A stretch of 64,000 nucleotides of DNA from an uncultured Anaerolineaceae bacterium (GCA_964575425.1 CAZNRD010000006.1:20293-84292); one strand, 5' to 3'; numbered from the stretch's first letter, positions 11,654-55,536 are shown. Notes: a model not told the origin generated them from the sequence alone. Program-made: numbers and translations.

Positions 11654-11683
11654 GGGGCCTCGTGTCGCAGACTGTGGGTCGGT

Positions 11684-12378: not shown

Positions 12379-12628
12379 CTCGACTCCCTCTGATCGCGGT
12401 CCGGATCGAAGTCTAGCCCAACGCTGGGTTGGCCTCAAGGCGAGGCGACAGGTCTGAGGCCGGGGTATCGGCGGCGGTGTGGTCGGGTTATTCGGGTGGG
12501 GCCAGGCGGTTTGCATGGTCATTCCTGAGTATTCGGATGCAGGAAGTTCGTTGGTGGCCCGCCGTGACAGTTTGCACTGGAAGCCGCCAGGTCGTAGCAT
12601 TATGCTGAAGCCGCGAGGAGGCTGGCGC

Positions 12629-12880
12629 ATGGCGAAAGGGCGCATTACGGTTGACGTCGTCCTGTGCAAGGGCTGCGGGCTGTGTCTGACGGTGTGTCCG
12701 AAGCATGTGATCGAGCTTCGCCTGGACCGCCTCACGCCCAAAGGGTATCATCCGGCCTCGTTGGAGGATCCGAACGGGGAGTGCACGGGCTGCGGGATTT
12801 GCGCGGTGATGTGCCCGGACGCGGCGATCGCCGTCTACCGCTGGGTGCCGGCGGCCAAGGCTCCAGCGGAGGCAACGTAG
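12629..12880 (+). CDS. 2-oxoacid:ferredoxin oxidoreductase delta subunit (2x[4Fe-4S] ferredoxin)
   Basis: Motifs [12 protein letters not shown] and [22 protein letters not shown] lies upstream of the ATG at 12629. It is the first gene of a four-gene OFOR cluster. Confidence 0.8.
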
Positions 12881-12890
12881 GAGGGGAGCG

Positions 12891-39775: not shown

Positions 39776-41362
39776 GTGAGCGGAGGGCGCATTCTTCTCC
39801 TGGACGACGACGGGGGGACGGTCGCGCTGTGCCGCCGGCTGCTGCCTCGGGCCGGTTACCAGGTGACGTCGGCAACAAGCGCCGAGGAGGCGCTGCGCCA
39901 CCTGCAGCGCGACGCCTTCGATCTCCTGCTTGTCGATGTCCGGATGAGCGGGGCCGATGGGTCCGCGTTGATGCGGCAGGTGCCCGCGCTACAGCCGGAC
40001 ATGGCAGTCGTAGTGATGGCGGGCGGGGATAGCCTGGGGATGGCCATCCGGGCGCTGGAAGAGGGCGCCAGCGGATTGGTCGTGAAGCCGTTCGAGTCGA
40101 ACCAGACGCTTCTGCGTCAGGTCTCCAGGGCGATCGAAGCCAACCGCGCACGCCGCGAGGCCGCCCGTAGCCGTGCGCTGCAACCGATCTTCGACCTGAC
40201 GGAGAGCCTGTTCGGGGAAACCGAGGAGACCAGTCTCGCGACGCGGGTGGCCCACGCGGTGCGAGCCCAGCTTCGCTGCGCTGCCGTGGGGGTCTATTGG
40301 CGGGACGATGCTGGCACCTCTCCCCGCTCGTTGGCACGCCTTGGCGAGGCACCGAAACCGGAAGAGGCCGCAGCGTCGGTCCTCATGCCCACGGGGGAGC
40401 CCTTGGTCGTCACCCGGCTTGGGCCCGGGGGCAATCCTGCTCCGGGCGTGGATCGATGGCTGGCGGCGCGTGGCCTGGGGTCGGGGCTAGTGGTGCCGGT
40501 GAGGCGCACGCAGGGAATCTGCATTCTCCTGGCCGTTCGTGAGGAGCGCCAGGCGGCGTTCAGCGAAAGCGAGGAAGAACTGCTGATCCTGCTGGCGCGT
40601 CAGGCGGCAGTGGCTCTGGAAAACGCGCGACTTTACGGCGCGCTGCGTGACCATGTGCGGGAGATCGAGCGATCGCAGCAGCGCCTGATCCAATCGGAGA
40701 AGCTGGCAGCCATCGGACGCCTGACCGCGTCGATCGCCCACGAGGTGAACAATCCGCTGCAGTCGCTCCGGAACTGTCTCGACCTGGCTGGCCGGGATGG
40801 GCTGGAAGAGGGTCAGCAGAGAGAGTATCTCAGGCTGGCGCAGAAGGAACTCGATCGCCTCAGCTGGATCATGCGGCAGATGCTGGATTTCTACCGCCCC
40901 GAGGCTGCTGCTCGCCAGTGGGTGGACCTCAATGAGCTGCTGCGGGAGGTGGTGATGCTTACGGCGGCTCAATGTGAGTCGAGGGGGGTCAAGCTTACCC
41001 TGGACCTGGCCAAGGACCTGCCTCGCATCCGTGCGGTTGGCTTCCAGCTCCAGCAGGTGGCGCTGAATCTGGTTCTGAACGCAATCGAGGCCATGCCGAA
41101 AGGCGGCAAGCTTTCGATTCGCACCCAGGCGCGTCGCGAGAGTGTGGTGGTGACCTTCCGCGACACCGGCGTTGGAGTCCCTCGACAGGACCTGCCCAGG
41201 ATCTTCGAGCCATTCTTCACCTCCAAGGCTCGCGGCACCGGGCTGGGGCTGGCGGTGAGCTACGGCATCGTGTCAGCCCACGGAGGCGTCATCGAGGTGG
41301 AGAGCGATGTGGGCGCGGGCAGCACCTTTCGCGTCAAACTTCCTATCGGGGAAGGGGAATAG
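39776..41362 (+). CDS. hybrid sensor histidine kinase (N-terminal REC - GAF - HisKA - HATPase)
   Basis: REC (ILLLDDD..LLLVDVRMSGADG), a central GAF-like region, H-box SIAHEVNNPL, and G-boxes DTGVG..GTGLGLAVS. Confidence 0.85.
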   Translation: MSGGRILLLDDDGGTVALCRRLLPRAGYQVTSATSAEEALRHLQRDAFDLLLVDVRMSGADGSALMRQVPALQPDMAVVVMAGGDSLGMAIRALEEGASGLVVKPFESNQTLLRQVSRAIEANRARREAARSRALQPIFDLTESLFGETEETSLATRVAHAVRAQLRCAAVGVYWRDDAGTSPRSLARLGEAPKPEEAAASVLMPTGEPLVVTRLGPGGNPAPGVDRWLAARGLGSGLVVPVRRTQGICILLAVREERQAAFSESEEELLILLARQAAVALENARLYGALRDHVREIERSQQRLIQSEKLAAIGRLTASIAHEVNNPLQSLRNCLDLAGRDGLEEGQQREYLRLAQKELDRLSWIMRQMLDFYRPEAAARQWVDLNELLREVVMLTAAQCESRGVKLTLDLAKDLPRIRAVGFQLQQVALNLVLNAIEAMPKGGKLSIRTQARRESVVVTFRDTGVGVPRQDLPRIFEPFFTSKARGTGLGLAVSYGIVSAHGGVIEVESDVGAGSTFRVKLPIGEGE

Positions 41363-42145
41363 GTGGCCGATCGGGTGCTGGTAGTCGATGATGACAACAT
41401 CGGCCGCCGCACGCTGGCCGAGATCCTGACGCTGGAGGGCTTTGAGGTCGTCGAGGCTGAAGGTGGGCGGGCGGCGATCGAGGCGCTGGGAGCAGCGGAC
41501 TTCGACGTCGTGCTGCTGGACCTGAAGATGCCCGATGTGGACGGGCTGGCCGTGCTCGAGGCCGCCTCCCATCTGGCGCCGGATGCGCAGGTCGTCGTGT
41601 TCACCGCGCACGGATCACTGGGGTCGGCGATCGAGGCAGTCCGCCACGGCGCTTTTGACTACCTGCTCAAGCCGCTGAGCAGCAGGGACATTCTGGCCTG
41701 CGTGCGCCGAGCCGTCGAGAAGCGCCGAGCGCAGGTTCGTCAGCAAAGGTTGCTGGCCCACCTGGAGCAGGCTGTGCGCGAGCTTCAGGCGGTGGAAGAC
41801 ACGAGCGATGCGCCCGTGGTGACGGTGGGGGCGGTGCGGCTCGACGTGTCGCGCCGCAGGCTGGAGAGGGGCGAGCAAAGCGTGGAACTCACGCCGGCGG
41901 AGCTGAGGCTGTTTCTGGCGCTCTATCGGCAGCGTGGGCGGGTGGTGGGGTTCCGCGACTTGGTGGACCAGGTGCAGGGTTATCAAGTCGAGACGTGGGA
42001 GGCTCCCGCGATGGTGCGGCCTGTGGTGAGCCGGCTGCGTGAGAAGCTGCGGCAGGTCGGCGGATCGGCAGAATGGATCGAGACCGTGCGCGGGAGCGGT
42101 TACCTGATGAGTGAAGGTGGCGGGGCTAGGCGGGCGGAGGGGTGA
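41363..42145 (+). CDS. OmpR-type response regulator (REC + winged-helix DNA-binding)
   Basis: VLVVDDD..VVLLDLKMPDVDG and a C-terminal LTPAELRLFLAL...VVSRLREKL...TVRGSGY. Confidence 0.85.
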   Translation: MADRVLVVDDDNIGRRTLAEILTLEGFEVVEAEGGRAAIEALGAADFDVVLLDLKMPDVDGLAVLEAASHLAPDAQVVVFTAHGSLGSAIEAVRHGAFDYLLKPLSSRDILACVRRAVEKRRAQVRQQRLLAHLEQAVRELQAVEDTSDAPVVTVGAVRLDVSRRRLERGEQSVELTPAELRLFLALYRQRGRVVGFRDLVDQVQGYQVETWEAPAMVRPVVSRLREKLRQVGGSAEWIETVRGSGYLMSEGGGARRAEG

Positions 42146-43052
42146 GCCAACGGAGCCAACCCCGGCCTCGGCGAGGCAGGCGGAGGCCGGCGTGGCGTTC
42201 GGTCAAGAGCAGGGCCAGGACGAGAAGACCAGCGCCGAGCCACTGTCCGGGGGCCAGAGCTTCGCGTAGCCATAGTCGGGAAAGGCCGACGGCCACCAGC
42301 AGCTCTGCAAGACCCAGGAGCGTGCTCTGCATACTGCCAGCGTGCTTGACGCCGGCGAACAGAAACAGCCTTGAGAGGAAGGTGACGACGGTCAGACATG
42401 CCAGCGGCAAGGCTTCAGAGGCGGTGAGGGTGGCCAGTGGCGGCGAGAACAAGGCGTATGCCGGGATGACGATGGCTGCCATGGCGGCCAGAGTGTAGAA
42501 GGCGACGGTCGGCGGCGGGGCTTCGTACAGGATGCGCTCGTTGATGGGGATGTGGAGCGCGTACAACAGGCTGGCCAGGAGCAGAAAGAGTGCCGCGCGC
42601 AGGTCCACATCACTGGGGGAAGCACGGGTGAGCAGAATCACGGCGGGCACGCTCAAGAGCAGGCGCAGCACCGTGAGTGGGGTCTGCCGCTGGCCGTCCA
42701 GGTACAGTATCAGGGCAACAAACACCGGGTACAGCGAGAACAAGAGCTGAGCCAGGCCGGCGTCCAGGCGGGCCAGCCCTGAGTAGAAGAAAAGAGACCC
42801 CAGGCCGTTGAGCCCGCCTGCCAGCAGGCAGCCGACGAGGCCGAGGGGGTAGATGTAGAGATCCCGCCTGCGGAACAGGGCCAGCACGAGCAAGAGCAGC
42901 ACTGCTGACCCCGCCGTGCGGATGGCGACGACGGCCAGCGGCGGCACACCGGCCTCCAGGGCTTGCTTGCCGAAGACCGGTGTGGTTCCCATCAGCAGGG
43001 CGGAGGCCAGGGCGAAGCGAAGTCCGCGCGTGTGAGCCGGAGAGGAACTCAT
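42126..43052 (-). CDS. EamA/DMT-superfamily transporter
   Basis: About 10 predicted TM helices in two repeats. It lies 14 nt downstream of the ThrC-REC gene, and its 3' end overlaps the convergent regulator by 20 nt. Confidence 0.8.
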   Translation of the reverse strand: MSSSPAHTRGLRFALASALLMGTTPVFGKQALEAGVPPLAVVAIRTAGSAVLLLLVLALFRRRDLYIYPLGLVGCLLAGGLNGLGSLFFYSGLARLDAGLAQLLFSLYPVFVALILYLDGQRQTPLTVLRLLLSVPAVILLTRASPSDVDLRAALFLLLASLLYALHIPINERILYEAPPPTVAFYTLAAMAAIVIPAYALFSPPLATLTASEALPLACLTVVTFLSRLFLFAGVKHAGSMQSTLLGLAELLVAVGLSRLWLREALAPGQWLGAGLLVLALLLTERHAGLRLPRRGRGWLRWLTPPPA

Positions 43053-43066: not shown

Positions 43067-44749
43067 CTAGCCCAGGACGCGGCCGATTTCCTGCAGCAGA
43101 TCTTCGTCGAGGTACTCGCCCTTGGTGATGAGGCGGGCGATCTGCCCTTCCAGAAGCTTCTTCTCCGCCGGCGTCAGGTCCATGGCGGTGACGACGATCA
43201 CGGGAATGTTGGCAGTTTCTGGCTGCTGGCGCAGGTGGTCGAGCACCGCGAAGCCATCCATCTCGGGCATCATCAGGTCCAGCAAGATCAGGTGGGGCGG
43301 GGTGCGGCGCGCCTCGGCCAGGGCCTCGTCGCCCGAGGCGGCTTCCTGGATGGCGAAATGGCCGTGGGCCTGCAGGATGCGTTGGAGCAGGCGTCGCGTT
43401 CCGGCGTCGTCGTCGATGATCAGGATGCGCTGAACGTGTTCCTGATCGAGCTCCGCCAGGGCTGCCAGCAGCCCCTCGCGGGGCGTCTCGCGCGTCAGGG
43501 CCGTCGGCACGGCGACGTCCTGCGCCCAGCCTTCGCCGAGCAGGCTCTCCTCCACCGGCAAGGTGTGTCCTGAGCAGTTCACGACCACGATCTGGTCAGG
43601 CCGTATCTGGCCGCCGCGGGCAAGCTTGATCAGCCCGGCGAAGGCGACAGCTGCGGCCGGTTCGAGCGAAAGGCCTTCGGTCTTGGCCACGATGTGCATG
43701 GCGCGGAACGCGTCCTCGTCGCTGACGCTCTCGAAGGTGCCGCCTGGCCCTTCCAGCATCCGCTCACGGAGGAGGGTGTAGGTTCGTCCCGGATCGCCGG
43801 TGCTCAGGGTGGCGATGTGGGTGCGGGGCGACTCCACTGGGGTGACGCTGGCGGCACCGCGATGCCAGGCGTCGGCCATGGGGGCGCAGCCAGAGGTTTG
43901 AATGCCGGCAACGGCGGGGACGTTCGGGACGAGCTCGAGGGCAACGAGTTCCTCGAAGCCTTTCAGCACGCCCATCGGGCCGATCCCGCCGCTTACGGAC
44001 TGGATGTACCAGTGGGGGGCGCGCCAGGGGGTGACCGGGCGGGTGCCGCGCGCTTCGGGGGCGGCCAACCCCCCGAGCTGCTCCGCAATCTCATAGGCGA
44101 TGGTCTTCATGGACTCGACGGCGGCGATGCTGCGTGTGCCTCGGTCGAGGTACAGGCCGCGCTGCTGGGCGAACTCTGCCGCCAGCCGCTTCGCTTGGTC
44201 GTACGTCCCGGTGACCTTGATCACCTGTGTGCCGTACAGCGCGACTTCGCGCATCTTCTCTGCCGGAACCAGGCTTGTGAGGAAAGCCCACAGGCGGATG
44301 CCGGCGCGCGCACAGTAGGCCGCATACGACATGGCGACGTTTCCCGTCGAGGCGACGACGGCTTCCCTCAGGCCAGCCTCCTTCAAGACGGCCACGGTGA
44401 GGGCGGCCTGTCGGTCCTTGAAAGAGGCCGTCGGGCTCTGACGTTCGTCCTTCACGAAGAGGTGTGGCAGGCCGAGGATCGCTCCCAGGTTGCGGGCAGG
44501 GAAGAGCGGCGTGCCACCCTCGCCCATGGGAAGCATTGGCGGGACGGAGCGAACCGGGAGTAGCTCCAAGTAGCGCCACAGGTCGAACGCACGGCGGGCC
44601 ACAAGGGTCGGAAGGGTGCGCATGAGCGGGGCCAGGTCGTAGCGGGCCTCGCGCCAGTGGCTGCCGCAGCGCGGGCATTCAAGGGAGGTCGGATGATACG
44701 GCTCCCGGTGTCCGCAGTCGAGACATTCCACGTCACAGTGCAGGGCCAT
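43067..44749 (-). CDS. threonine-synthase-like PLP enzyme fused to a C-terminal response-regulator receiver domain
   Basis: aa 1-~415: zinc ribbon CLDCG..CPRCG, PLP lysine motif SFKDR (K111), and glycine loop SVSGGIG. aa 441-560: a complete REC (DD446/447, D491 in LILLDLMMPEMDG, T521, K543). Confidence 0.85.
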   Translation of the reverse strand: MALHCDVECLDCGHREPYHPTSLECPRCGSHWREARYDLAPLMRTLPTLVARRAFDLWRYLELLPVRSVPPMLPMGEGGTPLFPARNLGAILGLPHLFVKDERQSPTASFKDRQAALTVAVLKEAGLREAVVASTGNVAMSYAAYCARAGIRLWAFLTSLVPAEKMREVALYGTQVIKVTGTYDQAKRLAAEFAQQRGLYLDRGTRSIAAVESMKTIAYEIAEQLGGLAAPEARGTRPVTPWRAPHWYIQSVSGGIGPMGVLKGFEELVALELVPNVPAVAGIQTSGCAPMADAWHRGAASVTPVESPRTHIATLSTGDPGRTYTLLRERMLEGPGGTFESVSDEDAFRAMHIVAKTEGLSLEPAAAVAFAGLIKLARGGQIRPDQIVVVNCSGHTLPVEESLLGEGWAQDVAVPTALTRETPREGLLAALAELDQEHVQRILIIDDDAGTRRLLQRILQAHGHFAIQEAASGDEALAEARRTPPHLILLDLMMPEMDGFAVLDHLRQQPETANIPVIVVTAMDLTPAEKKLLEGQIARLITKGEYLDEDLLQEIGRVLG

Positions 44750-44782: not shown

Positions 44783-47110
44783 TCATGGAGACACGGTGGG
44801 GTGCCGAAGGAGGCGTGAGAGCCAGCCCTGCACCTCGGCCATCATATCGGCCGGGGCCAGGCCGGATTGCTCCAGCAGGACAGTCCAGCGGTGAAACAGG
44901 TCGGCCTGCTGTTCTGGGGTGAAGGCCAGGGGTGCCAGCAGCACCAGCGGCGCTTTCGCAGTGCGCTCGTCGTGCTTGATTGCCTCAAGAGCGTCCAGGC
45001 CGTTCGTAGTGGGAGTGGTCAGGTCGATCAGAACGACGTCCGGGGGCTGCGCCTGGGCAACCTGCAGCGCCTCCTGGCCATCGGCGGCGAACACGACGCG
45101 GATCTCGGCACGATGCTCGAGCATCGCCCGCAGCTCCTGGTGCGCCTGTGGTTGATCGGAGATGGCCAGCACGAGGGGTCGTGGATGCTCGCGCGAGCAC
45201 AGGCGGAGCATGGCCGCCACCAGGTCATCCTGACGCACAGGCGGAGTGAGCCACTCCACCGCGCCGAAGCAGGCGCCTTGCTCGCGGTCGCGCCGCAGGC
45301 TGGCCAGGACCACCGGGGTCGAGCGCGTGTCGGGGGCGGCCTTCAGGCTCGCCATCAGTTGCCACGCGACGCTGTTCGGCAGAAGCGGATTCAGCACAAC
45401 CGCTCCCGGCGGACTGCCGCGCACAGTGGGGATGGCCTCCTGGGGCCTAACCGCGGAGTGCAGCTGGTAATGCGGATCAGACCAATGCTGGCGGTACCAA
45501 TCGAGAACCCCGCGATCGTCGTCGATGATGACGACCAGGGAGGAGGGGGGCGCCTCGGTTGCGGCCCCTTGCGGAGGCTCGACCGGCAGCGAGAAGGAGA
45601 ACGTGCTGCCCTCGCCGAGCTTGCTGTCCACCCAGATGCGGCCCCCGTGCAGTTCGACAAGGTGGCGGCAGATGGAGAGGCCGAGCCCGGTGCCTCCGGT
45701 CTTGCGTGTGGGAGAGGCATCGACCTGGGAGAAAGGCTCGAAGAGCTTCGCCTGGTGCTCGGCAGCGATGCCCGGACCGGTGTCGAACACGGAGACCACG
45801 ATTTCCCGGCGACCGTTGGCCTGATCCAGGCGCGCCGTCGCCCCCACCTGTCCCCGTTCGGTGAACTTCGTGGCATTGGAGATCAGGTTCAGGAGCACCT
45901 GCCGGACCCGGATGCTGTCGGCCTGGATGGGCGGCAGGTGTTCGGGGAGATCGAGGACAAGCTCAATGGGCTTGTCCTTCACCAGCCCCGCGGCCGTCGA
46001 CATGACGCTGCGAATGATCTCGAGCAGATCCACTTCGCTGAAGGCCAGCTCCATCTTGCCGGCCTCGATGCGCGACAGGTCGAGGATATCGTTGATCAGC
46101 CCCAAGAGATGCTGGCCCGAGTTGTAGATGGCGGTGAGGTCCTGTGCCTGGGTCTCATTGATGGGGCCGTCGATTCCCTTGAGGATGACGCGCGAGAACC
46201 CGATGATGGAGTTGAGCGGTGTGCGAAGCTCGTGGCTCATGTTGGCCAGGAACTGGGACTTGAGGCGATCCGCCTCGCGCATCTCCTCCAGGGCCTGGCG
46301 GGTGAGCTGGTAGCTACGGGCGTCGGTCAGAGCCTGGGCCAGCTGCTGGGCGGCCGCCTCCGCGAGGAGGCGATCGTCCTCGCTCCAGCCCCGGCCATCT
46401 TCGCGCGGCCCCAGCTCCAGCACGCCAAGCAGGCGCTCCCGGTCGAGGACGGGGATGACCAGGCGGGAGTCGCTGGGTGTGGACACTATGTCGCTGTCGA
46501 GCGGCTGGACCGACCGGGCGTCGGCGCGATAGCCGGCGAGGTGCCGTGCCGGCAGGGTCGGTGCGGCCTCGGCGGTGATCTGCGGAGCGGGTTCCGGTTG
46601 GGCCGCTCTGGGGGCCGAAGCCAGCGGGGCGAATGCTGGCGGCTCAGCAACTGCAGGCAATTTGGCAGGGGTCGGAGGTGCGGCCGCGTGCTTGCGGCGC
46701 TCGAGAACTCGGATGACGCCACGGTATCCTGCTCTCAAGCCAGATCCGTCGAGGCGCGGGACCGCGCCCAGCCAGAGTGAGACCTGGTCGCCGTCCTCGG
46801 TGGACGCATCGAGGATTAGGCCGCGAATCTCGTCGCCGCTTTCGAGGGCGCGGGCAAGGGCTGCTGACGAGCCGGCCGATAATCCGAGGAAGTCGAGCCG
46901 CTTGCCGATGAGGTCGGCCGAAGGCATTCCGAAAGCGGCTTCGATGTCGCGGCTGCACCAGGTGACGTTGCCCTGGAGGTCAGTCTCCCACATCCAGGCG
47001 CGTGGGGATTCCCGAGGGCGCGCCGCCCTGGGTGGGCTGGAGGTGGGGGACTGGGATGGGGCGCCCTGGGAGTTGCCATGCGGTCTGTTTGAGGCAGGGT
47101 TCTGGTTCAT
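44783..47110 (-). CDS. hybrid histidine kinase: PAS - short GAF - HisKA - HATPase - pseudo-receiver - receiver
   Basis: H-box MSHELRTPLN (H293) and G-boxes DTGPGI, GGTGLGLSI. REC1 has Asn at the acceptor position (VVLNPLLP). REC2 has VVLIDLTTP (D696). Confidence 0.9.
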   Translation of the reverse strand: MNQNPASNRPHGNSQGAPSQSPTSSPPRAARPRESPRAWMWETDLQGNVTWCSRDIEAAFGMPSADLIGKRLDFLGLSAGSSAALARALESGDEIRGLILDASTEDGDQVSLWLGAVPRLDGSGLRAGYRGVIRVLERRKHAAAPPTPAKLPAVAEPPAFAPLASAPRAAQPEPAPQITAEAAPTLPARHLAGYRADARSVQPLDSDIVSTPSDSRLVIPVLDRERLLGVLELGPREDGRGWSEDDRLLAEAAAQQLAQALTDARSYQLTRQALEEMREADRLKSQFLANMSHELRTPLNSIIGFSRVILKGIDGPINETQAQDLTAIYNSGQHLLGLINDILDLSRIEAGKMELAFSEVDLLEIIRSVMSTAAGLVKDKPIELVLDLPEHLPPIQADSIRVRQVLLNLISNATKFTERGQVGATARLDQANGRREIVVSVFDTGPGIAAEHQAKLFEPFSQVDASPTRKTGGTGLGLSICRHLVELHGGRIWVDSKLGEGSTFSFSLPVEPPQGAATEAPPSSLVVIIDDDRGVLDWYRQHWSDPHYQLHSAVRPQEAIPTVRGSPPGAVVLNPLLPNSVAWQLMASLKAAPDTRSTPVVLASLRRDREQGACFGAVEWLTPPVRQDDLVAAMLRLCSREHPRPLVLAISDQPQAHQELRAMLEHRAEIRVVFAADGQEALQVAQAQPPDVVLIDLTTPTTNGLDALEAIKHDERTAKAPLVLLAPLAFTPEQQADLFHRWTVLLEQSGLAPADMMAEVQGWLSRLLRHPTVSP

Positions 47111-47168
47111 GGTGATGCTTTCCGTTCCCGAGAGTCCTTCCTAGAGTGTCCCGCCGATGCGCGCATAG

Positions 47169-50100
47169 CTATTGCGGGCCTCCAGACGGGATGTTCGTCC
47201 CGGATTTTGAGCCATCGCCGGACGTCTCGAGCGGACCTCGGTGGAAGTCAGCGGCGAGGCGGATGACGGCTTCCTGCGCGCCGAGGGCGCGGCGCATCTC
47301 TGTCACCGCGGTGCGCAGGATGGCATCCACGTCGCGGGTGGAGCGGATCTTGCCCGTGATTTCCATCAGCGCTTCTTCACGCTGGGCCCGGCGCAGGGCG
47401 TCGTGGTACAGGCGAGCGTTCTGGATGGCCACACCGAGCTGGTCGCTTAGAACCTCCAGGACGGCGATCTCGTCCTCGGTGAAGGTGTGGGGACGCGTGT
47501 GCTGGACGTCGAGCGCCCCGATGACGCGGTCACCCGAGCGGAGGGGGAGCCCCAGCTCGGTTTGAGTGTCGGGGAGGTGTGGATTGGGCTTGAAGTATGG
47601 ATCCTGGCTGGCATCGTGGGCCACATAGGCCTGGCCGGTCTGAGTGACCTGGCCGACGATTGACTGCGAGCCGACAGCGAGCCGATGTCCGCTGGCCTTC
47701 ATCTCACGCCCGGCATCGCCAGTGGCCTCGCGCAGGACGGCGTACTCGCCCTTGTCGTCCACAAGGAAGATAGAGACATGGTGGAAGCCAAAGCGGTCGC
47801 GCACGAGGCTGATGGCGCGCGCCAGCAGCGTGTCGACGTCCAGCAGCGCTGTGGCGTCGCGTGCGATCTCGGCGGCGATGCGCAGCTGCGCGGCGCGGCG
47901 GTGGATCTCCTCCAGCAGCCGCGCCTGCTCGAGGGCGTTTGCCACCTCATCCGCCACCGCATCCAGCACAAGCCTGTCGTCTTCGCTCCAATCGCGAATG
48001 GGCTGCGGAGCGTCAATCCCCAGCCTGCCGATCACTTCGCCGCGCAGCGAGATCGCGGTCTCGAGGGGCATGGAGGGCGGCAGGTCCTCTCGCCTGCGCC
48101 CCTTCTGCAGGTACTCGAAGTACGTCCTGGCCGCGCCGGCGCGTCGGGCGGCGAAGAGCTGAGTCCAGGATTCCTCAGCTCGCTGCCGGTACAGGGCGTC
48201 GAGGTGTTGCAGGCTCTGTTGCATCTCGTCGAAGAGTCTGGCATTCTCGAGCGCGACGGCCACCAGGCCGGCGAGCATTTCCATCATTTCGATGTCGTCG
48301 TCGCTGAGGCCGCCTGCCAGCAGGCGTTCGACTGACAGGGTGCCGATGGCCTGGCCCCGGCTCAGGAGGGGAACAGCAAGGACTGCGAGAGGATCTCCCG
48401 GGGCAAGGCGCGCCCCCAGGATAGAGTCAGCGGAGAGATCGGGGATCTGGACGCGGCTCTTGAGGGCGGCGGCCCGGCCGAGCACACCCTGTCCAAGTGG
48501 CAGGGCCTGGCCCACGGGAATGGGCCGGATGCCGGGAGCCCGAGCGGCGCCGCGGATGATCAGTTCCTTGCCTTCGACGAGGGCGATGCTCACCCGGTCG
48601 TACCCGAAGTCCTGCTGGATGGCGGAGGCAGCCTGGATGATCACCTGACCCAGCCCAAGCTCCTCGCTGAGCTGGCGGGACAGTTCGATGATGCGGCGGC
48701 GCTGGCCGGCGCGGCGCGTCTCGACCCCGATCAGGCTGACGTTCTCGATGGCCACTGCCAGCTGATCGGCCATCGTCTGTAGGACGACGACATCGGCCTC
48801 TTCGAAGGCGTTGGCCTCGCGGCTCTGGACGTCGAGGGCGCCGATGATGCGGTTTCCGATGCGCAGCGGCAGGGCCATTTCCGAGCGCGTCTCCGGCAGG
48901 TCGGGGTTGGCAAAGTGGACGGCGTCAGCCCCCACGTCCAGCGCGATGCGCGGCTTGCCTGTGCCGGTGACGTAGCCCACGATGCCCATCTTGCCGACGC
49001 CGAGGCGGTGCCCGCGCTGGAGCATCCGCTGCCCGCCTTCGGAAGAAGCGGCGCGCAGGACAGCCCATTCGCCCGTTTCGTCAATCAGAAAGATGCCGGC
49101 GTGGTAGAAGTCGAAGCGCTCGGAGATCAGATGGACAGTCTCGTTCAGGAGGCGGTTGATGTCGCGTGTGGCGGCGGCGTCGCGGGCGACCTCGGCCGCG
49201 GTCCGGATCTGCTTCGTTCTCTCGTCCACGCGCGCTTCCAGTGAGCGGTAGAGGCTGGCCAGGTCCTCGGCCATGCGGTTGAAGGTGGCCGACAATCGCC
49301 CGACCTCGTCCGGTCGGTCGACCGGCACGCGGCGATCCCAGTCTCCCTGGGCGAAGCGCTCGGCGAACGCCGCCAGCGTTCCAAGCGGCCGGATGGAGCG
49401 GGAGGTGGCCCAGGGCACGATGAGGAACACCAGCACCACCGTGCCGAGCATCAGCGCGATGGTGAAGGTGGTGAGGGTGTTCAGGCCGCCGAAGGCCGCG
49501 CTCTGCGGCACTTCGGCCACGATCGCGGCGCCGATCTCCGGGACCCACTGGTACACCGAGAGCATGGCGTTGCCAACAGGGTCGACGAACTCGGCCTCGC
49601 CTGCCGTGCTGGTGGCCAGGGCGGCGAAGACCGGGTGATACTCGGCCTGCATCGTTCGCACATCGAGGAAGATCGCCTGGAAGCTCAGCAGCGTCTGCGG
49701 CGGCAGCGCCAGGTAGAGGGCGCTGCCGGGCATCTGCGAGCGCCGGTTTCCGCTGACCAGGTTGTACACCTCCTCACTGTTGGAGACGCCCACCAGCACG
49801 GCTCCGGGCATGGGCGTCACGGAGACGAGCGAGACAGGTGAGATCCCGCTGAACAGCCGGGTGTGGGTCAAGGCGGTGCCGTTGAAGGGGAGCTGGCTGA
49901 TGCCGCTCACGTGCCGGCCCTGCCACTGCGCGGGGTGCGAGGCCAGGATCAAGCCGTCGGAGAGCCGCACCACCATGATCCCGGTGAACCAGTCTCGCGG
50001 GGTATTGGCGTTGCTGGAGCGGAGGAGCTCCTGGACACGGGCGAGAGCCTCCTCCGACTCCGGCCCTCCCGGCTCCAGCAAGCGCGCGATGTCTTCCGCG

Positions 50101-50372
50101 AGCGAAGGATCGCGGGCGAGGTTGCGCAGAAGCGGCTCGCGGGCGCGCCGCCACTCCAGGAAGGCGGTAGTCTGGGCCTCGGCGCCGCGCTCCATCTGAC
50201 TGATGACCTGCTGCCGGATCAGCTCACGGGCACGGAAGTAGGCAGCCGTTCCCAGAGCGACGATGGGCAGGATGATGAGCGGCAGCAGTGTCAGCGTCAG
50301 CCGCGCCCCCAGGCTGGCACGCGGACCGCGCGGGATTCTGATCCGACCCTGAGAGGCGGAATCGGTGCTCAT
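47169..50372 (-). CDS. membrane sensor: TM - extracytoplasmic domain - TM - HAMP - multiple GAF domains, no recognisable output domain
   Basis: 1067 aa. HAMP region is IRPLGTLAAFAERFAQGDWDRRVPVDRPDEVGRLSATFNRMAEDL. There are at least four GAF repeats with the recurring block HRL.VG..SIVG.V...G......D.......NP.LP.T.SE...PL..G.R.IGALDVQ. ATGA overlap with the upstream gene. Confidence 0.85.
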   Translation of the reverse strand: MSTDSASQGRIRIPRGPRASLGARLTLTLLPLIILPIVALGTAAYFRARELIRQQVISQMERGAEAQTTAFLEWRRAREPLLRNLARDPSLAEDIARLLEPGGPESEEALARVQELLRSSNANTPRDWFTGIMVVRLSDGLILASHPAQWQGRHVSGISQLPFNGTALTHTRLFSGISPVSLVSVTPMPGAVLVGVSNSEEVYNLVSGNRRSQMPGSALYLALPPQTLLSFQAIFLDVRTMQAEYHPVFAALATSTAGEAEFVDPVGNAMLSVYQWVPEIGAAIVAEVPQSAAFGGLNTLTTFTIALMLGTVVLVFLIVPWATSRSIRPLGTLAAFAERFAQGDWDRRVPVDRPDEVGRLSATFNRMAEDLASLYRSLEARVDERTKQIRTAAEVARDAAATRDINRLLNETVHLISERFDFYHAGIFLIDETGEWAVLRAASSEGGQRMLQRGHRLGVGKMGIVGYVTGTGKPRIALDVGADAVHFANPDLPETRSEMALPLRIGNRIIGALDVQSREANAFEEADVVVLQTMADQLAVAIENVSLIGVETRRAGQRRRIIELSRQLSEELGLGQVIIQAASAIQQDFGYDRVSIALVEGKELIIRGAARAPGIRPIPVGQALPLGQGVLGRAAALKSRVQIPDLSADSILGARLAPGDPLAVLAVPLLSRGQAIGTLSVERLLAGGLSDDDIEMMEMLAGLVAVALENARLFDEMQQSLQHLDALYRQRAEESWTQLFAARRAGAARTYFEYLQKGRRREDLPPSMPLETAISLRGEVIGRLGIDAPQPIRDWSEDDRLVLDAVADEVANALEQARLLEEIHRRAAQLRIAAEIARDATALLDVDTLLARAISLVRDRFGFHHVSIFLVDDKGEYAVLREATGDAGREMKASGHRLAVGSQSIVGQVTQTGQAYVAHDASQDPYFKPNPHLPDTQTELGLPLRSGDRVIGALDVQHTRPHTFTEDEIAVLEVLSDQLGVAIQNARLYHDALRRAQREEALMEITGKIRSTRDVDAILRTAVTEMRRALGAQEAVIRLAADFHRGPLETSGDGSKSGTNIPSGGPQ

Positions 50373-52537
50373 CGCAGGTCCTCCAGCTCGCTGGTTGCGG
50401 CAGGCGCCTCCAGGCTCTCCGCCAGGCGAGCGTAGGCGCGAGCCGCGCCCAGCCCCTCGCTCAGCTCGCGCGCCGCGGTCATCAGGATCGTGTCGATGTC
50501 GGCCGCGCGTCTCACGCGCGTCGTGATCTCATGGATGAGCCGCTGGCGGCGCGCCGTCCGGCGAACCTCGTCCAGCAGCCGGGCGTTCTCAAGCGCCGTC
50601 CCCACCTGGCTTGCAATCGTGGCAAGCAGGGCAGCGTCGTCATCGGTGAAGCGGCGCTCCTGCTCCCGGTCCTGCACGGCAAGCACGCCAAGGTTGGTCT
50701 CACCCACAAGCATGGGGACGCCCAGCCAGGAGGCGATGCCTTTCTCCGGAAGGGTCAACTCGAGTGCCGCGGCCTGGGCCTCGACGTCCTCCGTCAGGAG
50801 CAGAGGCTGGCGTGTGCGGATCACGTGCGCGATGGGGTCGTTCGCCAGGTCGATTTCCCCTCCTTCGCGTATCTCGCCCCCCTTGGCGGTGTAGGGGAAC
50901 TGCACGCGTTGATGCTCCTCATCGAACAGAGCGATGATGAGGTCGGCCTCGCCCAGGACCTGGCGGACCTGGTTGTGGAGCACGCGGTAGAGGGCGCCGA
51001 CGTTGAGCAGCTGGGAGGCGGCCTGGCTCACCCGGTTGACGACTTCCAACTCAGCCAGGCGGCGCTGCTCTTCCGCATACTGGCGCGCCGCCTCCAGAGC
51101 CTGGCCTGCCTGGCTGGCGACGGCCTGCAGGACGGCGACGTCTTCCTCATCGAATGGGGGTTCGGCATCGGCCTTGCGCGCGGCGATGGTAGCCACGACC
51201 TCGTCTCGAACGAAGACCGGGACAGCCACCTCATGGCCGCCCTCGGCCAGCACCGGCTGCCCCAGTTCGGTCGCTTCTCTGGACACGTCCGGGCGCGGTG
51301 GAAGGCCATCCGGGGCCGCGCCACGCAGGTGCAATTCAGCCGCCTCAGCGGAACGAGCCAGGCGCTGCCACGATGCCGCCAGGCGGACATCCCCTGCGGC
51401 TTCGAGGCCGGCGCTGGCCTCGCGAAGCAGCCGGATATACTCCAGCGCGACGGCCAGCTCGGAGGCGATGGCCTCCAGGGCGCTGACATCCTCGTCGGCG
51501 AAAACCTCGGGCTGAGTGCTTTGGACATCCAACGCCCCGAGCAGGCGACCGCCCGCAAGGATCGGAACAGCGGCCTCGGACCGGGTTCCAGGCAGCAGCG
51601 GATTCTTGAAGTAGAACGGGTCCTTCTCGACGTCCTGGGCGACTCGGGGCTGCTGATTGGCGGTCACCCAGCCGACGATCGAGGCGCTGCCCACTGCCAG
51701 CCGATGCTTGCGGGCCAAGAGCTGTCGTCCCGCCTCGCCCGTGCTTGCGCTGAGTTCCGCCCACAGCCCCGTGGCGTCGAGCAGGAAGATCGAGGCATGA
51801 TGGAAATCGAAACGCTGGCGCATCGACTCGACGGTGCGAGTCATCAGATCGTTCGCATCGGGGGTTTGAGTCGCCAGTCTGGCGACCTCTGCCGCCGCCT
51901 CAATCCGGGCCCGCTGCCTGGCTTGCGTCTCGCCGCCGCCGCCGGGGCGCGCCTCGAGGGCCCGCTTCTCATCCTGCAGGTCGACCAGTCGCTTCTGCTG
52001 CTCTTCCAGTGCCCTGTTGTTCGCGCGCACGATCCCCGCGACGGTGAGCGTCAGGGCAGTCGAGATCAACACCAGGGCGACCACCGGGGTGATCCAGCGG
52101 GCGAGTTCGGCTGCCGGAGTCCACGCGGCGACTGCTGCGAGACCCACCATGACAGCCGCGAGGGAAGCCAGGCCGCCCGGAAGTCCAAACAGCATGGCGC
52201 CCATGATCGGCCCAATCACAACCCACCCGACGCTTGGCCCGCCCAAGCCCTGGGTGACCAGCCCCGCCAGCCCCAAGGCCAACGTGAGCCCGAGCAGGCT
52301 TCCCGCGCGCAGGCCGTAGGGCAATCGCGGCACGAAAGTGGCGACCATCAACCACACGACAGCCGCGCCCACCATGCCAATGACGAGCCACTGGCGACTC
52401 TGCACCGCGATTTGGAGTGGGCCCGCGTGGGTCCAAAGACCGACAAGCGTGACGGCGAGGATCAGGCCGCTGAGCAGGCGCGGACGGAGCAGGGGCGATT
52501 GAGGAAGCAAAGGTTCGAAGGGGACTCGCATCGTCAT
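50369..52537 (-). CDS. polytopic membrane protein (about 6 TM) - coiled coil - three GAF domains, no recognisable output domain
   Basis: 722 aa with a hydrophobic N-terminal 170 aa, the coiled coil NRALEEQQKRLVDLQDEKRALE, and then GAF repeats of the same type as the neighbouring genes. Confidence 0.8.
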   Translation of the reverse strand: MTMRVPFEPLLPQSPLLRPRLLSGLILAVTLVGLWTHAGPLQIAVQSRQWLVIGMVGAAVVWLMVATFVPRLPYGLRAGSLLGLTLALGLAGLVTQGLGGPSVGWVVIGPIMGAMLFGLPGGLASLAAVMVGLAAVAAWTPAAELARWITPVVALVLISTALTLTVAGIVRANNRALEEQQKRLVDLQDEKRALEARPGGGGETQARQRARIEAAAEVARLATQTPDANDLMTRTVESMRQRFDFHHASIFLLDATGLWAELSASTGEAGRQLLARKHRLAVGSASIVGWVTANQQPRVAQDVEKDPFYFKNPLLPGTRSEAAVPILAGGRLLGALDVQSTQPEVFADEDVSALEAIASELAVALEYIRLLREASAGLEAAGDVRLAASWQRLARSAEAAELHLRGAAPDGLPPRPDVSREATELGQPVLAEGGHEVAVPVFVRDEVVATIAARKADAEPPFDEEDVAVLQAVASQAGQALEAARQYAEEQRRLAELEVVNRVSQAASQLLNVGALYRVLHNQVRQVLGEADLIIALFDEEHQRVQFPYTAKGGEIREGGEIDLANDPIAHVIRTRQPLLLTEDVEAQAAALELTLPEKGIASWLGVPMLVGETNLGVLAVQDREQERRFTDDDAALLATIASQVGTALENARLLDEVRRTARRQRLIHEITTRVRRAADIDTILMTAARELSEGLGAARAYARLAESLEAPAATSELEDLR

Positions 52538-52565
52538 GCCAATCCTTCTGACAGGTGCCGGTGCA

Positions 52566-54437
52566 TCATGCCGGCTCCTCGTCGGCTGGCACCGGTTCTG
52601 GCGCCTGCCTGCCGTCTTCGAGCGTTACCAGACGCACGACAACGTCCGGCCGCCCAAGCGCCTGGTGAACGAACTGGCCTGCAGTCTCCAGCACCCGATC
52701 GACATCGGTCAGGCCGGACATGGCTGTCGTCACCTCACTGATCAGGCGAGCGCGTTCAGCGGCGAGCGCCGATCTCTCGGCCAGCCTGGCGTTCTGAATG
52801 GCGGCGCTCAACTGGTCGGCCAGCATCTGCAGGATGGAAAGGTCTTCCGGGCTGAAGGCGTGCGGTTCGAGGCTCTGCACGTCGAGGGCGCCGAGGATGC
52901 GCCCGCCCACCTGAAGGGGAACGGCAGCCTCGGAGCGCGTGCCCGGCAGGAGTTCGTTCTTGAGGTGGATCGGGTCGTGGCTGACATCGGAGGCGACTCG
53001 CGGCTGGCCGTTGGCGGTCACCCACCCGATGATGGACTGTGATCCCACGGGCAGGTTGTGGCCGCGAGCGACAAGAGCGGCTCCGGCCTCGCCGGTGGCC
53101 TCTCGCAGCACTGCGTTCTTGCCGGTCTCATCCAGCAGGAAGATGCCCGCGTGGTAGTAGCCGAAGCGTTCGCAAATCAGCTGCACCGCGCGGCGCAGAA
53201 GCTCCTGCAGGTTTGGGACGGAGGTGGCCGCCCGGGCGACCTCTGCTGCCGTGCGCACCTGCCGCGTCCGCTCCTCGACGCGCGCTTCGAGCGTGCGGTA
53301 GAGGCCGCTCAAGTCCTCGGCCATGCGATTGAACGTGGCGGCCAACTGCCCGACCTCGTCCGGGCGCTCGACCGGGACGCGGCGGTCCCACTCCCCGCGG
53401 GCGAACCGCTCGGCGACCGTCGCCAGGGTTGCGAGCGGCCGGATGGCGCGCGAGATGGCCCAGGGAACGATGACAAACACCATCACCACCCCCCCTAGCA
53501 TCAAGGCCACGGTGAAGCCGGTGAGCGTGTTCAGGCCGGCGAACACAGTGCTTTGGGGAATTTCCAAGATGACGGCGGTCCCGAGCGAGGGGAGCCAGCG
53601 GTAGACCGAGATCACGGGTACGCCCTTCAGGCCAGTGTGCTCGATCTGGCCCGTCTCGGCGGTGTTGAGCGCGTCGAAGACTGGATGGTGGGCCGAGTGC
53701 ATCTCCACCCAGGGCCAGGCGGCAGCAGCCCTCACGAACCCCACGATCTTGTCTGGGGGCAGGCCCAGGTAGAGATCACTGTCGGACGTGATCGGGGGGG
53801 CTTCCTCATGGGTGAGGCGGTGTATCTCCAAATCGTTGGCGATGCCGATCAGGGCGGCCTTGGGCTCTCCCTCGCCGGTGGGTATTGGCATCAGCGTCAG
53901 GAGAGAAACCTCCGGGGCCCCGGGGAAGGCTGCGGACGTGGTGATGTGGGTGGCAGAGGGTGGCATCGCGGCGATGTTGTTCACGCGGAGACCTTGCCAC
54001 TGGTCCGGAACCGACGCCAGGATCAGTCCATCGGAGAGTCGGACGACCATCATCCCGGCATACCAGTCGCGGGGGGATCCGCTGTTCAGGGTCTGCAGCT
54101 CCTGCTGAAGGGCCGGCAGGACCGAGGCGGCCGTTCCTCGCTGGTCATCTTGGAGGAGGCGGGGCACCAATGTGAGGATGGTTTGGTTCTGGCTGGCGCT
54201 CATCATTCGCAGCTCGTGGGTTCGGCGCCATTCCTCGAGGGTGTTGACCTGAGCGTCGACGCTGTGCTCCATCTGGGTGACCACCTGCTGGCGGAGCAGC
54301 GCGCGGGCACGGAAGAAGGCGGCCATCCCCAGAACCAAAATGGGCAGGATAATGAGCGGCAGCAGCGCCAGCGCCATCCTGCGGCCCAGGCGCTCCTGAG
54401 GCTGGAGCCGGGCGGGGTCGACACGTTGTCGCTGCAT
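52566..54437 (-). CDS. membrane sensor: TM - extracytoplasmic domain - TM - HAMP - two GAF domains, no recognisable output domain
   Basis: Its N-terminal 330 aa are a clear paralogue of 47169-50372 (LLPLIILPI..FFRAR.L.RQQV..QME; MVVRLSDGLILAS.P.QWQG). The ATG at 54437 has RBS GGGAGATGGAG. The GTG at 54455 is the ORF-track alternative. Confidence 0.85.
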   Translation of the reverse strand: MQRQRVDPARLQPQERLGRRMALALLPLIILPILVLGMAAFFRARALLRQQVVTQMEHSVDAQVNTLEEWRRTHELRMMSASQNQTILTLVPRLLQDDQRGTAASVLPALQQELQTLNSGSPRDWYAGMMVVRLSDGLILASVPDQWQGLRVNNIAAMPPSATHITTSAAFPGAPEVSLLTLMPIPTGEGEPKAALIGIANDLEIHRLTHEEAPPITSDSDLYLGLPPDKIVGFVRAAAAWPWVEMHSAHHPVFDALNTAETGQIEHTGLKGVPVISVYRWLPSLGTAVILEIPQSTVFAGLNTLTGFTVALMLGGVVMVFVIVPWAISRAIRPLATLATVAERFARGEWDRRVPVERPDEVGQLAATFNRMAEDLSGLYRTLEARVEERTRQVRTAAEVARAATSVPNLQELLRRAVQLICERFGYYHAGIFLLDETGKNAVLREATGEAGAALVARGHNLPVGSQSIIGWVTANGQPRVASDVSHDPIHLKNELLPGTRSEAAVPLQVGGRILGALDVQSLEPHAFSPEDLSILQMLADQLSAAIQNARLAERSALAAERARLISEVTTAMSGLTDVDRVLETAGQFVHQALGRPDVVVRLVTLEDGRQAPEPVPADEEPA

Positions 54438-54439: not shown

Positions 54440-54847
54440 TCACTCCATCTCCCACACGGGCTCGCCCGTCAACGCGCGGCGAATCTGGTCGGGGAATCGA
54501 TCGGGGTCCAGAGGCTTGCCCAGAAAGCCGTTGAAGCCGGAGGCGCGGGCTCGCGCCATCTGGTCATCGCTGACGTAGGCCGTCACGGCCACCACAGGGA
54601 TGTCCTTGAGGCTGGGCGACTCGCGGATGCGGCGCAGCGCATCGTAGCCATCCTCGTAGGGCAGGCGGATGTCCATCAGGATCAGGTCGAGGCGAGGCAG
54701 CGCGCCGGCGTACTCCACGACCTGGTAGCCAGAGGTCTTCCACTCGCAGCGGATCCCCATATGGGCGAGCATGCGCGCCATAAGGACAAAGTTGGCGACA
54801 TTGTCTTCGACGATCAGGATCGTGGCGTCTTTCACCGAGGCCCTCAC
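54440..54847 (-). CDS. single-domain CheY-like response regulator
   Basis: ILIVEDN..LILMDIRLPYEDG..AVTAY..KP. Confidence 0.9.
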   Translation of the reverse strand: MRASVKDATILIVEDNVANFVLMARMLAHMGIRCEWKTSGYQVVEYAGALPRLDLILMDIRLPYEDGYDALRRIRESPSLKDIPVVAVTAYVSDDQMARARASGFNGFLGKPLDPDRFPDQIRRALTGEPVWEME

Positions 54848-54859
54848 TGGCTCTCCCCT

Positions 54860-55243
54860 TCAGGTTGGACGGTGCAGGAAGCGGGCGATCTGCCTGGGGA
54901 GGTAGTCCACATCGATGGGTTTCTGGATGTAGCCGTCGCAGCCGGCTGCCAGCGTGCGCTCGCGATCGCCCCGCATGACGTTGGCGGTGATGGCGATGAC
55001 GGGTACTGCCGCCAGCGTCGGATCAGCCTTGAGCCGGGAGGTGAGGGTGTATCCGTCGACCCCGGGCATGTTGATGTCGACCAGGATGAGATCCGGGCGG
55101 TGACCATCGATGACCCGAAAGGTCTCCGCTGCGTTGCCGGCCTCCAGGACGATGTACCCCTCGGCCTGCAAGATGCGGCGGACGAGGACGCGGTTGTCGA
55201 CGTTATCCTCAACGTACAGGACGGTGTACGGACGTTCGTGCAC
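54860..55243 (-). CDS. single-domain CheY-like response regulator
   Basis: VLYVEDN..LILVDINMPGVDG..AITAN..KP. GTG start. It is the first gene of the minus-strand operon. Confidence 0.9.
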   Translation of the reverse strand: MHERPYTVLYVEDNVDNRVLVRRILQAEGYIVLEAGNAAETFRVIDGHRPDLILVDINMPGVDGYTLTSRLKADPTLAAVPVIAITANVMRGDRERTLAAGCDGYIQKPIDVDYLPRQIARFLHRPT

Positions 55244-55423
55244 CCGTGTCCATCCCTGGGCATTGCCCGCCTGAAGGCCTCATCATTGTATGCAGGGCTC
55301 GAGGGGCGGCGCGTTAAGGAAGCATTGCAGGCGCGGCGAATGCGCGTGCCTGCGTCCCCATGATGGGTTGGTACTGTGGTACTCCCAACAAGGACCAGGG
55401 GTGCGAATTGCCCGGAACGCGAA

Positions 55424-55445: not shown

Positions 55446-55464
55446 CGTATCCCGGTTGCCCGAG

Positions 55465-55536
55465 AGCGGGTGATGGGATTCGAACCCACGAATGGTAGCT
55501 TGGGAAGCTACTGCCTTACCGCTTGGCGACACCCGC
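55465..55536 (-). tRNA. tRNA-Gly (anticodon CCC)
   Basis: The hand-folded 72-nt cloverleaf has acceptor GCGGGTG/CACCCGC, anticodon arm GTAGC-TTCCCAA-GCTAC, and T arm GTGGG-TTCGAAT-CCCAT. CCA is not encoded. Confidence 0.95.

Follow-up and report, generated by a model that had tools for sequence, protein, structure and literature searches.

Three consecutive membrane receptors with GAF modules and no output domain in an operon of an uncultured Anaerolineaceae bacterium

This study concerns an operon on the minus strand of a 64,000-nucleotide (nt) stretch of DNA from an uncultured Anaerolineaceae bacterium (GCA_964575425.1, CAZNRD010000006.1:20293-84292; 'the window' below is this whole stretch, and coordinates count from its first letter). 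The operon encodes, in order, two single-domain receivers (RRb, RRa), three kinase-less receptors (P1, P2, P3), a hybrid histidine kinase (HK), an enzyme-receiver fusion (ThrC-REC) and a transporter (EamA), with intergenic spacings from RRb to EamA of 12, -16, 28, -4, 58, 33 and 14 nt, the P3 and P2 genes overlapping by 4 nt (Table 1). Three consecutive proteins of 629, 722 and 1067 amino acids (aa) had been recognized in a preliminary description of this DNA, and the three minus-strand genes for them stand; P1 may begin at a GTG (54455, 629 aa) or at an ATG (54437, 623 aa), the latter being the start of the database record of the window's own protein (P0005). They had further been placed between two CheY-like proteins and 'the only kinase'. 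Two single-domain receivers do lie upstream and the hybrid kinase downstream, while 'only' holds for the operon alone, as a second, convergent REC-GAF kinase is encoded at 39776-41362.

No kinase, cyclase, phosphodiesterase, phosphatase or helix-turn-helix domain was found in P1-P3 by searches of Pfam (E<=0.1, or E<=1 on cut-out pieces), NCBIfam and PDB profiles, or in AlphaFold models of P1 and P3 (built with 90 and 17 homologs, respectively). The Pfam scan, which had been named beforehand as the check on the claim that output domains are absent, returned nothing but HAMP and GAF for P1 and P3 and nothing but MASE11 and GAF for P2. The PDB profile search gave HAMP and GAF relatives only, and neither it nor the models revealed a cryptic catalytic domain at the C-termini, the finding that had been expected to overturn that claim. 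We also trained a GAF hidden Markov model (HMM) on the six GAFs that are clear in the window and used it to partition the cytoplasmic parts; together with Pfam HAMP and the AlphaFold secondary structure it accounts for every cytoplasmic residue, and since no long stretch is left unassigned there is no space for a catalytic domain. Pfam found no match to HisKA (DHp) at E<=0.1 in P1-P3, and no His is conserved across their three C-terminal ends; neither Pfam nor NCBIfam matched HATPase_c. Likewise, the signalling hairpin of methyl-accepting chemotaxis proteins (MCPs; MCPsignal, PF00015) was not reported in P1-P3 by Pfam at E<=0.1, and neither the operon nor its relatives encode CheA or CheW, the kinase there being of the HisKA type. 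With their defining domains searched for and absent, P1-P3 are outside both the MCP and the histidine-kinase families.

The same architecture extends to the homologs. At E<=0.001 there were 279 homologs of P1/P3 and 417 of P2, all of the named ones from Chloroflexota or Anaerolineales metagenome bins. Among the best 120 of the 279 and the best 120 of the 417, whose domain content was read, none carried an output Pfam domain, and those of P2 consisted of MASE11 and GAF only or of dCache-HAMP and GAF; a kinase ATPase motif ends a few of the weakest homolog matches.

The membrane parts are as the preliminary description had them. In P1 and P3, hydrophobicity and Pfam show two transmembrane segments that flank an extracytoplasmic domain of about 250 aa, with HAMP after them, and P2 has a multi-spanning MASE11 domain with about six hydrophobic segments. 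MASE11 has been described as a membrane sensor domain and is otherwise paired with outputs of the HD-GYP, GGDEF-EAL or kinase kind (bioRxiv 10.1101/2021.11.05.467447). The P1 sensor (aa 49-307) matched no Pfam family, and the P3 sensor is its paralog. This domain is rare, being found in 83 clusters among 1.84 billion representatives, and all 10 of the carriers tested had HAMP and/or GAF only or were fragments. In the AlphaFold model of P1 (mean predicted local distance difference test, pLDDT, 83) the part outside the membrane is a long helix with two beta-rich lobes; HAMP, a single GAF and a disordered end come after it, and Foldseek searches with the input half of P1 gave as top matches models of the dCache-transmembrane-HAMP chemoreceptors McpB, McpC and YvaQ of B. 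subtilis. The P3 model (pLDDT 74) follows the same plan. Immediately ahead of the outer lobe's first strand, P1 has the motif RDWY (aa 129-132, 54060-54071) and P3 RDWF (aa 126-129, 49986-49997). Both are reminiscent of RxWY, the signature of dCache domains that bind amino acids; the consensus of the wider family does not keep the motif.

The cytoplasmic parts are built from three kinds of GAF-related module. The HMM recognized six full GAFs, two truncated 'mini-GAFs' and three C-terminal 'stubs' in P1-P3, and a third mini-GAF in the kinase. The earlier count of about nine GAFs of one sequence type was therefore too high: of the six full GAFs only four (P1-G1, P2-G1, P3-G1 and P3-G4) are of the quoted type (HRLxVG...ALDVQ, here type A), with mutual identities of 46-57% as opposed to 22-28% with the other two. 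Whereas the sensor-HAMP plan proposed for P1 and P3 was borne out, the two and at least four GAFs assigned to them come down to one full GAF in P1 and to three plus one truncated module in P3, and the three assigned to P2 to two full GAFs plus a truncated C-terminal-half module. On the other hand, the short GAF that had been noticed in the kinase is indeed there, as a C-terminal-half mini-GAF before HisKA. The boundaries of full GAFs and stubs in Table 1 are those of the HMM; in the mini-GAFs the HMM matched the C-terminal half only (P2 aa 416-487, P3 aa 774-822, kinase aa 214-266, the last immediately before HisKA). An hhalign comparison assigned the mini-GAF to GAF columns 79-166 (probability 98.4%), while its leading helix and Trp segment did not align to the start of a GAF, so that the idea of the mini-GAF as a GAF with just an internal deletion gains no support. 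The P3 mini-GAF is modelled between long helices.

The stubs, of about 45 aa, end all three receptors and match the N-terminal part of a GAF only (linker helix, first helix and first strand; hhalign probability 94%, E 1.4e-7); in P1 the stub is followed by an acidic tail that is not conserved. In the PDB search the stub aligns to the junction with, and the start of, the next GAF in the tandem-GAF proteins 8w26 and 6oap. The last GAF helix of the P1 model extends to residue 580 and a second helix spans residues 585-599, and the P3 stub is modelled as helix, helix and strand at low confidence. That the P1 stub (RLISEVTTAMSG) is a degenerate DHp (RLKSQFLANMSHE) was considered and rejected: hhalign to the DHp of the operon kinases gave a probability of 0.4%, against 94% for the GAF N-terminus, and there is no conserved His.

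As to fold, Foldseek placed the P1 type-A GAF at TM-scores of 0.79-0.84 to the PtsP GAF and to free methionine-R-sulfoxide reductase (fRMsr), the best matches of the type overall being the PtsP GAF, fRMsr with substrate and the cAMP-binding Lcd1 GAF (0.75-0.84); NCBIfam gave GAF matches of P1-P3 to NifA and PtsP. Matches to phytochromes have a root-mean-square deviation of about 45 A and reflect the GAF fold only. P2 and P3 contain no cysteine and P1 a single one, at residue 428, outside the pocket motifs. The GAF pockets of P1-P3 thus have neither a bilin-binding Cys nor the catalytic Cys of fRMsr, although JGI so annotates some homologs.

Conservation is distributed unevenly along the receptors. 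Measured as mean top-residue frequency per region in 90 orthologs, P1 scored 0.51 in the sensor, 0.73 in HAMP, 0.82 in the GAF, 0.62-0.76 in the stub and 0.31 in the acidic end, and with P3 likewise profiled the ranges for the two proteins were 0.82-0.84 (type-A GAF), 0.69-0.73 (HAMP) and 0.47-0.51 (sensor). The type-A GAF is thus the most conserved part of the receptors and nearly alike in all three paralogs. A C-terminal stub was found in 118 of 119 homologs in the P1/P3 set and in the P2 set alike, and in orthologs at 45-55% identity, taken from six other contigs, full GAFs, mini-GAFs and stub follow exactly the same order. In contrast, the outer sensor is swapped among relatives while the stalk is kept, being the novel double-lobed domain, MASE11 or dCache_1; the last replaces the sensor in the P1 ortholog of contig L011, in the P3 ortholog of L003 and in P2 relatives of about 1000 aa.

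The operon itself recurs in the related contigs that we compared (L001, L003, L005, L009/L010, which come from one genome bin, L011 and L012/L013), in the order receiver, receiver, P1, P2, P3, (ParA-like gene), kinase, ThrC-receiver and EamA, except that L001 has no ThrC-receiver gene between kinase and EamA. The EamA gene is kept in L001, L010, L011 and L013, and the genes are close or overlapping in every related contig examined. L001, L003 and L005 also share part of the upstream neighbourhood (cinA, DAO-family oxidase and ABC-transporter genes). A gene for a ParA/MinD-like ATPase of 259-262 aa overlaps the P3 and kinase genes in L001, L003, L005 and L013. It is absent between P3 and kinase in the window, where a 58-nt gap (47111-47168) takes its place, and likewise from the window's closest relatives, L009/L010 and L011; the ParA-like gene is thus an optional feature of the cluster. 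A copy displaced elsewhere in the window was ruled out, as the sole weak match (25% identity, 20799-21260) is another protein. A peptide '[KR]xLxxRLExLF' at the kinase N-terminus occurs in the four ParA-bearing contigs and not in the three ParA-less loci, the window included. This co-occurrence (7/7 contexts) covers those seven loci, further kinase orthologs in the database having both peptide-bearing and peptide-less forms. L012/L013 encode additional receptors that have dCache sensors. The stretch separating these from the P3-like gene (L012:13290-17268) contains calls of 85, 133, 417, 56, 410 and 246 aa, some with GAF, which resemble one or two receptor genes disrupted by frameshifts that may be errors of assembly. 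Literature searches on MASE11, on GAF, HAMP and Anaerolineae, and on threonine synthase-receiver fusions found no account of this cluster, and a scan of a genome collection with P2 gave just two irrelevant Acidobacteriota loci. The cluster is a real conserved signalling module of the Anaerolineae, and apparently an undescribed one.

The kinase that follows the receptors consists of a PAS-like region, a Pro/Ala linker, the mini-GAF, HisKA, HATPase, a pseudo-receiver and a receiver. It has no transmembrane segment and no extracytoplasmic sensor, its own sensing part being a PAS-like fold only, and its H, N, G1 and G2 boxes are intact. The N-terminal region, of low complexity, gave only 11 matches as a query. 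Its first receiver (45191-45544, minus strand) has Asn at the phospho-accepting Asp position (VVLNPLLP), and the second (44786-45172, minus strand) keeps the Asp and has lost the conserved Thr and Lys, while an alignment with CheY shows the Asp, Thr and Lys signature residues in RRa, RRb and the ThrC-fused receiver. Because the L001 and L003 kinases have no receiver at all, direct transfer to the separate receivers is likely. ThrC-REC is probably the operon's output. In the kinase orthologs of all six contigs the mini-GAF precedes DHp. The L013 kinase (10755-13181) lacks the PAS-like region; after its mini-GAF comes a full type-A GAF in direct fusion with DHp, which ties the receptor-type GAF to the kinase.

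Table 1. The operon and the modules of its products: positions in the window and supporting evidence.
Feature	Position	Strand	Description
RRb	54860..55243	-	single-domain receiver, 127 aa, GTG start; Pfam Response_reg E=4.6e-27; 63-74% identity to first receiver of related operons
RRa	54440..54847	-	single-domain receiver, 135 aa; Pfam Response_reg E=8.5e-22; 72-74% identity to orthologs
P1	52566..54455	-	kinase-less receptor, 629 aa; transmembrane segment, double-lobed sensor, transmembrane segment, HAMP, one type-A GAF, stub
P1 extracytoplasmic sensor, aa 49-307	53535..54311	-	long helix and two beta-rich lobes, dCache-like (AlphaFold, Foldseek)
P1 HAMP, aa 333-383	53307..53459	-	Pfam HAMP E=9e-16
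P1 type-A GAF with leading helix, aa 396-560	52776..53270	-	Pfam GAF_2 5.8e-21; own HMM 6e-81
P1 stub, aa 566-611	52623..52760	-	linker helix, second helix, short strand; N-terminal third of a GAF
P2	50369..52537	-	kinase-less receptor, 722 aa; MASE11, helix, type-A GAF, mini-GAF, GAF, stub
P2 MASE11, aa 18-169	52031..52486	-	Pfam MASE11 1.5e-10; hydrophobic segments
P2 type-A GAF, aa 208-372	51422..51916	-	own HMM 1.7e-77
P2 mini-GAF, aa 373-487	51077..51421	-	helix with conserved Trp, loop, beta-hairpin, last GAF helix
P2 second full GAF (not type A), aa 495-657	50567..51055	-	own HMM
P2 stub, aa 662-705	50423..50554	-	own HMM
P3	47169..50372	-	kinase-less receptor, 1067 aa; transmembrane segment, sensor, transmembrane segment, HAMP, type-A GAF, GAF, mini-GAF, type-A GAF, stub
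P3 HAMP, aa 323-371	49260..49406	-	Pfam HAMP 2e-13
P3 type-A GAF no. 1, aa 385-549	48726..49220	-	own HMM
P3 second GAF (not type A), aa 554-716	48225..48713	-	own HMM
P3 mini-GAF, aa 717-822	47907..48224	-	own HMM; modelled as hairpin and helix, low confidence
P3 type-A GAF no. 2, aa 826-990	47403..47897	-	own HMM
P3 stub, aa 995-1044	47241..47390	-	own HMM, AlphaFold
HK	44783..47110	-	soluble hybrid histidine kinase, 775 aa
Kinase mini-GAF, aa 160-266	46313..46633	-	directly before DHp helix; same module as P2 and P3 mini-GAFs
ThrC-REC	43067..44749	-	560 aa; threonine-synthase-like pyridoxal-phosphate (PLP) enzyme fused to receiver; Pfam PALP 2.2e-64 and Response_reg
EamA	42126..43052	-	EamA-family transporter, 308 aa; Pfam EamA; last gene of the conserved cluster

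Outside the receptors and kinase, ThrC-REC also matches the NCBIfam threonine synthase model, under that model's cut-off. Between 42 and 55 kb the window has a G+C content of 65-69% and abounds in shadow open reading frames, and homology puts the real genes on the minus strand. A 736-aa open frame opposite P2 (50531-52741, plus strand) is a shadow frame typical of high-GC DNA, without supporting homology, and a 139-aa frame with an ATG start (54844-55263, minus strand), considered as the first receiver gene, matched no family and shadows RRb in another frame. Upstream of the operon lie ABC-transporter and DAO-family oxidase genes, and a tRNA-Gly(CCC) gene (55464-55536, minus strand) sits between cinA and the first receiver gene, its promoter being a perfect 12/12 match to the sigma-70 consensus (TTGACA-17-TATAAT, 55577-55549, minus strand). 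Since tRNA and promoter are on the same strand and precede the first receiver gene, the operon may be transcribed through from the tRNA promoter. A riboswitch search upstream of the operon turned up the tRNA alone. Directly behind EamA lie the convergent REC-GAF-HisKA-HATPase kinase and an OmpR-type regulator (39776-42145, plus strand), a pair common to the window, L010 and L011 and partly present in L013.

We propose, with a probability of roughly 55%, that P1-P3 belong to an Anaerolineae-specific phosphorelay of several receptors and one kinase, in which they act in the manner of chemoreceptors: kinase-less themselves, they would control through contact a single soluble kinase common to all three. 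The receptors would sense signals outside the cell or within the membrane, P1 and P3 by the rare dCache-like double-lobed domain and P2 by MASE11. The signal would pass, through HAMP in P1 and P3, to a rigid helical stalk that bears the GAF modules and is terminated by the conserved stub, and the type-A GAF and stub would form the coupling surface for the operon's one soluble kinase. The kinase would then phosphorylate both CheY-like receivers and the receiver of the ThrC-like PLP enzyme, with the EamA transporter downstream. Physical contact, direction of control and phosphotransfer targets are what we infer here, the coupling to the kinase from synteny, from the shared modules and from the type-A GAF and stub being the only invariant parts of the three receptors. 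The proposal is further supported by the lack of output domains in P1-P3, by the conservation profile, with sensors exchanged and the stalk kept, by the solubility of the kinase, by the homology of its mini-GAF to those of P2 and P3, by the fusion of a type-A GAF to DHp in L013, by the superposition of the N-terminal half of P1 on the McpB, McpC and YvaQ models, and by the precedent of CvnF8, a stand-alone GAF protein of Streptomyces coelicolor that binds a sensor-less histidine kinase, CvnA8, whose autophosphorylation is stimulated (PMC13343842).

Several points weigh against this proposal. Conserved gene order shows a functional link and not its mechanism, and the support for control of the kinase by the receptors is all indirect. 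The kinase's own PAS-like domain could sense alone, and the GAFs, judged by their closest folds, may be sensors of cytoplasmic ligands. Confidence in the stub and mini-GAF models is low (pLDDT about 35-65), and the assembly may differ between clades, as some relatives have a ParA-like ATPase that is absent here.

A bolder reading, which we hold to be unlikely, is that stub and mini-GAF are the two halves of a split GAF and that a receptor docks by donating its stub to the mini-GAF of a partner, be it the kinase or a neighbouring receptor. It stems from the observation that each piece has what the other lacks, the stub corresponding to GAF columns 6-46 (first helix and strand) and the mini-GAF, confidently, to columns of about 112-166 (last hairpin and helix), and that both are conserved yet poorly modelled as monomers; the operon encodes three stubs and three mini-GAFs. 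If such docking were true, it would make a GAF-based receptor-kinase lattice, and bacteria would have, besides chemoreceptor arrays and stressosomes, a third type of array with many receptors.

Among the other explanations, the one that survives best, though we consider it improbable, is that the GAFs (about nine by the earlier count) themselves sense cytoplasmic small molecules and combine internal metabolites, perhaps the status of amino acids or nitrogen, with the signal from outside before acting on the kinase. The closest folds of the type-A GAF do bind ligands, the motifs of its pocket region are almost invariant in the 90 orthologs, and the surroundings and output have an amino-acid theme (the ThrC-like enzyme, EamA, and the upstream ABC-transporter and DAO-family oxidase genes). 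However, given the identities among the four type-A GAFs of three proteins, all would sense the same ligand, so that several copies would be redundant as sensors, and no region is conserved more strongly than these GAFs; in two truncated modules the pocket half is gone, and the Cys needed for fRMsr chemistry or bilin attachment is missing. The pattern of conservation is more in keeping with a shared module for transmission or docking than with nine ligand sensors in their own right. The preliminary description had seen the three proteins as ligand-binding co-sensors assembling on the hybrid kinase; of this, the idea of output-less sensors acting through the neighbouring kinase is the best-supported part (synteny, soluble kinase, shared mini-GAF, L013 fusion), while ligand binding by the GAFs is doubtful, because the type-A GAF is highly conserved and alike in the paralogs whereas the outer sensor varies.

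We regard it as quite unlikely that the receptors bypass the kinase, either acting on the ThrC-like enzyme or EamA directly or serving solely as membrane scaffolds. While ThrC-receiver and EamA are conserved in the cluster to the same degree as the kinase, and EamA, like P2, is a polytopic membrane protein, it is the kinase in which modules of the receptors recur (the mini-GAF and, in L013, the type-A GAF) and not the enzyme or the transporter, and L001 retains the kinase without a ThrC-receiver gene between it and EamA. Finally, the idea that P1-P3 are sensor kinases decayed from NarX/NarQ-like ancestors by loss of the DHp and catalytic domains, or pieces of a frameshift-split gene, with little present function, would draw on the sub-threshold NCBIfam matches of the region from the second transmembrane segment through HAMP to the following helix, of which NarQ and NarX are the best, and on a possible resemblance of the stub to the remnant of a lost downstream domain, but it is hardly tenable and already contradicted by the conservation data, as P1, P2 and P3 each possess a separate N-terminal membrane sensor and share the position of the stop codon with orthologs at 45-55% identity, and the stub, not DHp-like by hhalign, is nearly universal in each family and conserved more than the sensor domain and about as well as HAMP.

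Two-component signalling is usually pictured as a pairing of one sensor kinase with one regulator and, to our knowledge, chemotaxis is the one well-studied case of many receptors sharing a kinase. The chemoreceptor-like reading of P1-P3 suggests a second, independently built design of many receptors and one kinase, in which GAF modules replace the MCP hairpin. The cluster is widespread in the Anaerolineae (hundreds of database clusters) and would end in a phosphorylation-controlled PLP enzyme and an exporter, not in a transcription factor or a motor. It raises the question of what role a conserved third and a conserved half of a GAF may have, and the window, as the smallest version among the loci compared here (three receptors and no ParA), is convenient for reconstitution in E. 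coli.

The receptors may be compared with three known kinds of system. From the membrane to the first GAF their modules are arranged as in NarX and NarQ, NarQ being the best NCBIfam and PDB match for the second transmembrane segment, HAMP and following helix; unlike those kinases, P1-P3 lack DHp and catalytic domains, and in the AlphaFold model the P1 sensor is a beta-rich double lobe instead of the four-helix bundle of NarX. Closer in function are stand-alone GAF accessory proteins that control a kinase by binding it directly, such as NreA, which serves NreB in Staphylococcus carnosus, and CvnF8. P1-P3, too, have only GAF-type cytoplasmic modules and no catalytic domain, and are encoded beside a kinase that has no external sensor. 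The likeness lies in function: whereas CvnF8 and NreA are small, soluble, single-GAF proteins, P1-P3 are large membrane receptors with one to three full GAFs, mini-GAFs, a conserved stub and, in P1 and P3, HAMP, and there are three of them per kinase.

The other near parallel is with chemoreceptor arrays (MCP-CheW-CheA-CheY), some of which are positioned by ParA-like ATPases (PpfA/TlpT, ParC/ParP). As in such arrays, several paralogous non-enzymatic receptors would feed one soluble histidine kinase, an arrangement read here from the genes; the input half of P1, by Foldseek on models, is dCache-like with transmembrane segment and HAMP as in McpB and McpC; the operon has single-domain CheY-like receivers; the cytoplasmic part of P1 and P3 is more conserved than the sensor; and in relatives, though not in this operon, a ParA-like ATPase gene adjoins that of the kinase. 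The likeness to MCPs is confined to the dCache-transmembrane-HAMP half. In contrast to the arrays, the operon has no MCPsignal hairpin, CheW, CheA, CheR or CheB, its kinase is a class-I HisKA kinase, the stalk of P1-P3 consists of GAF modules and a GAF stub, and a receiver-fused PLP enzyme takes the place of the motor as output.

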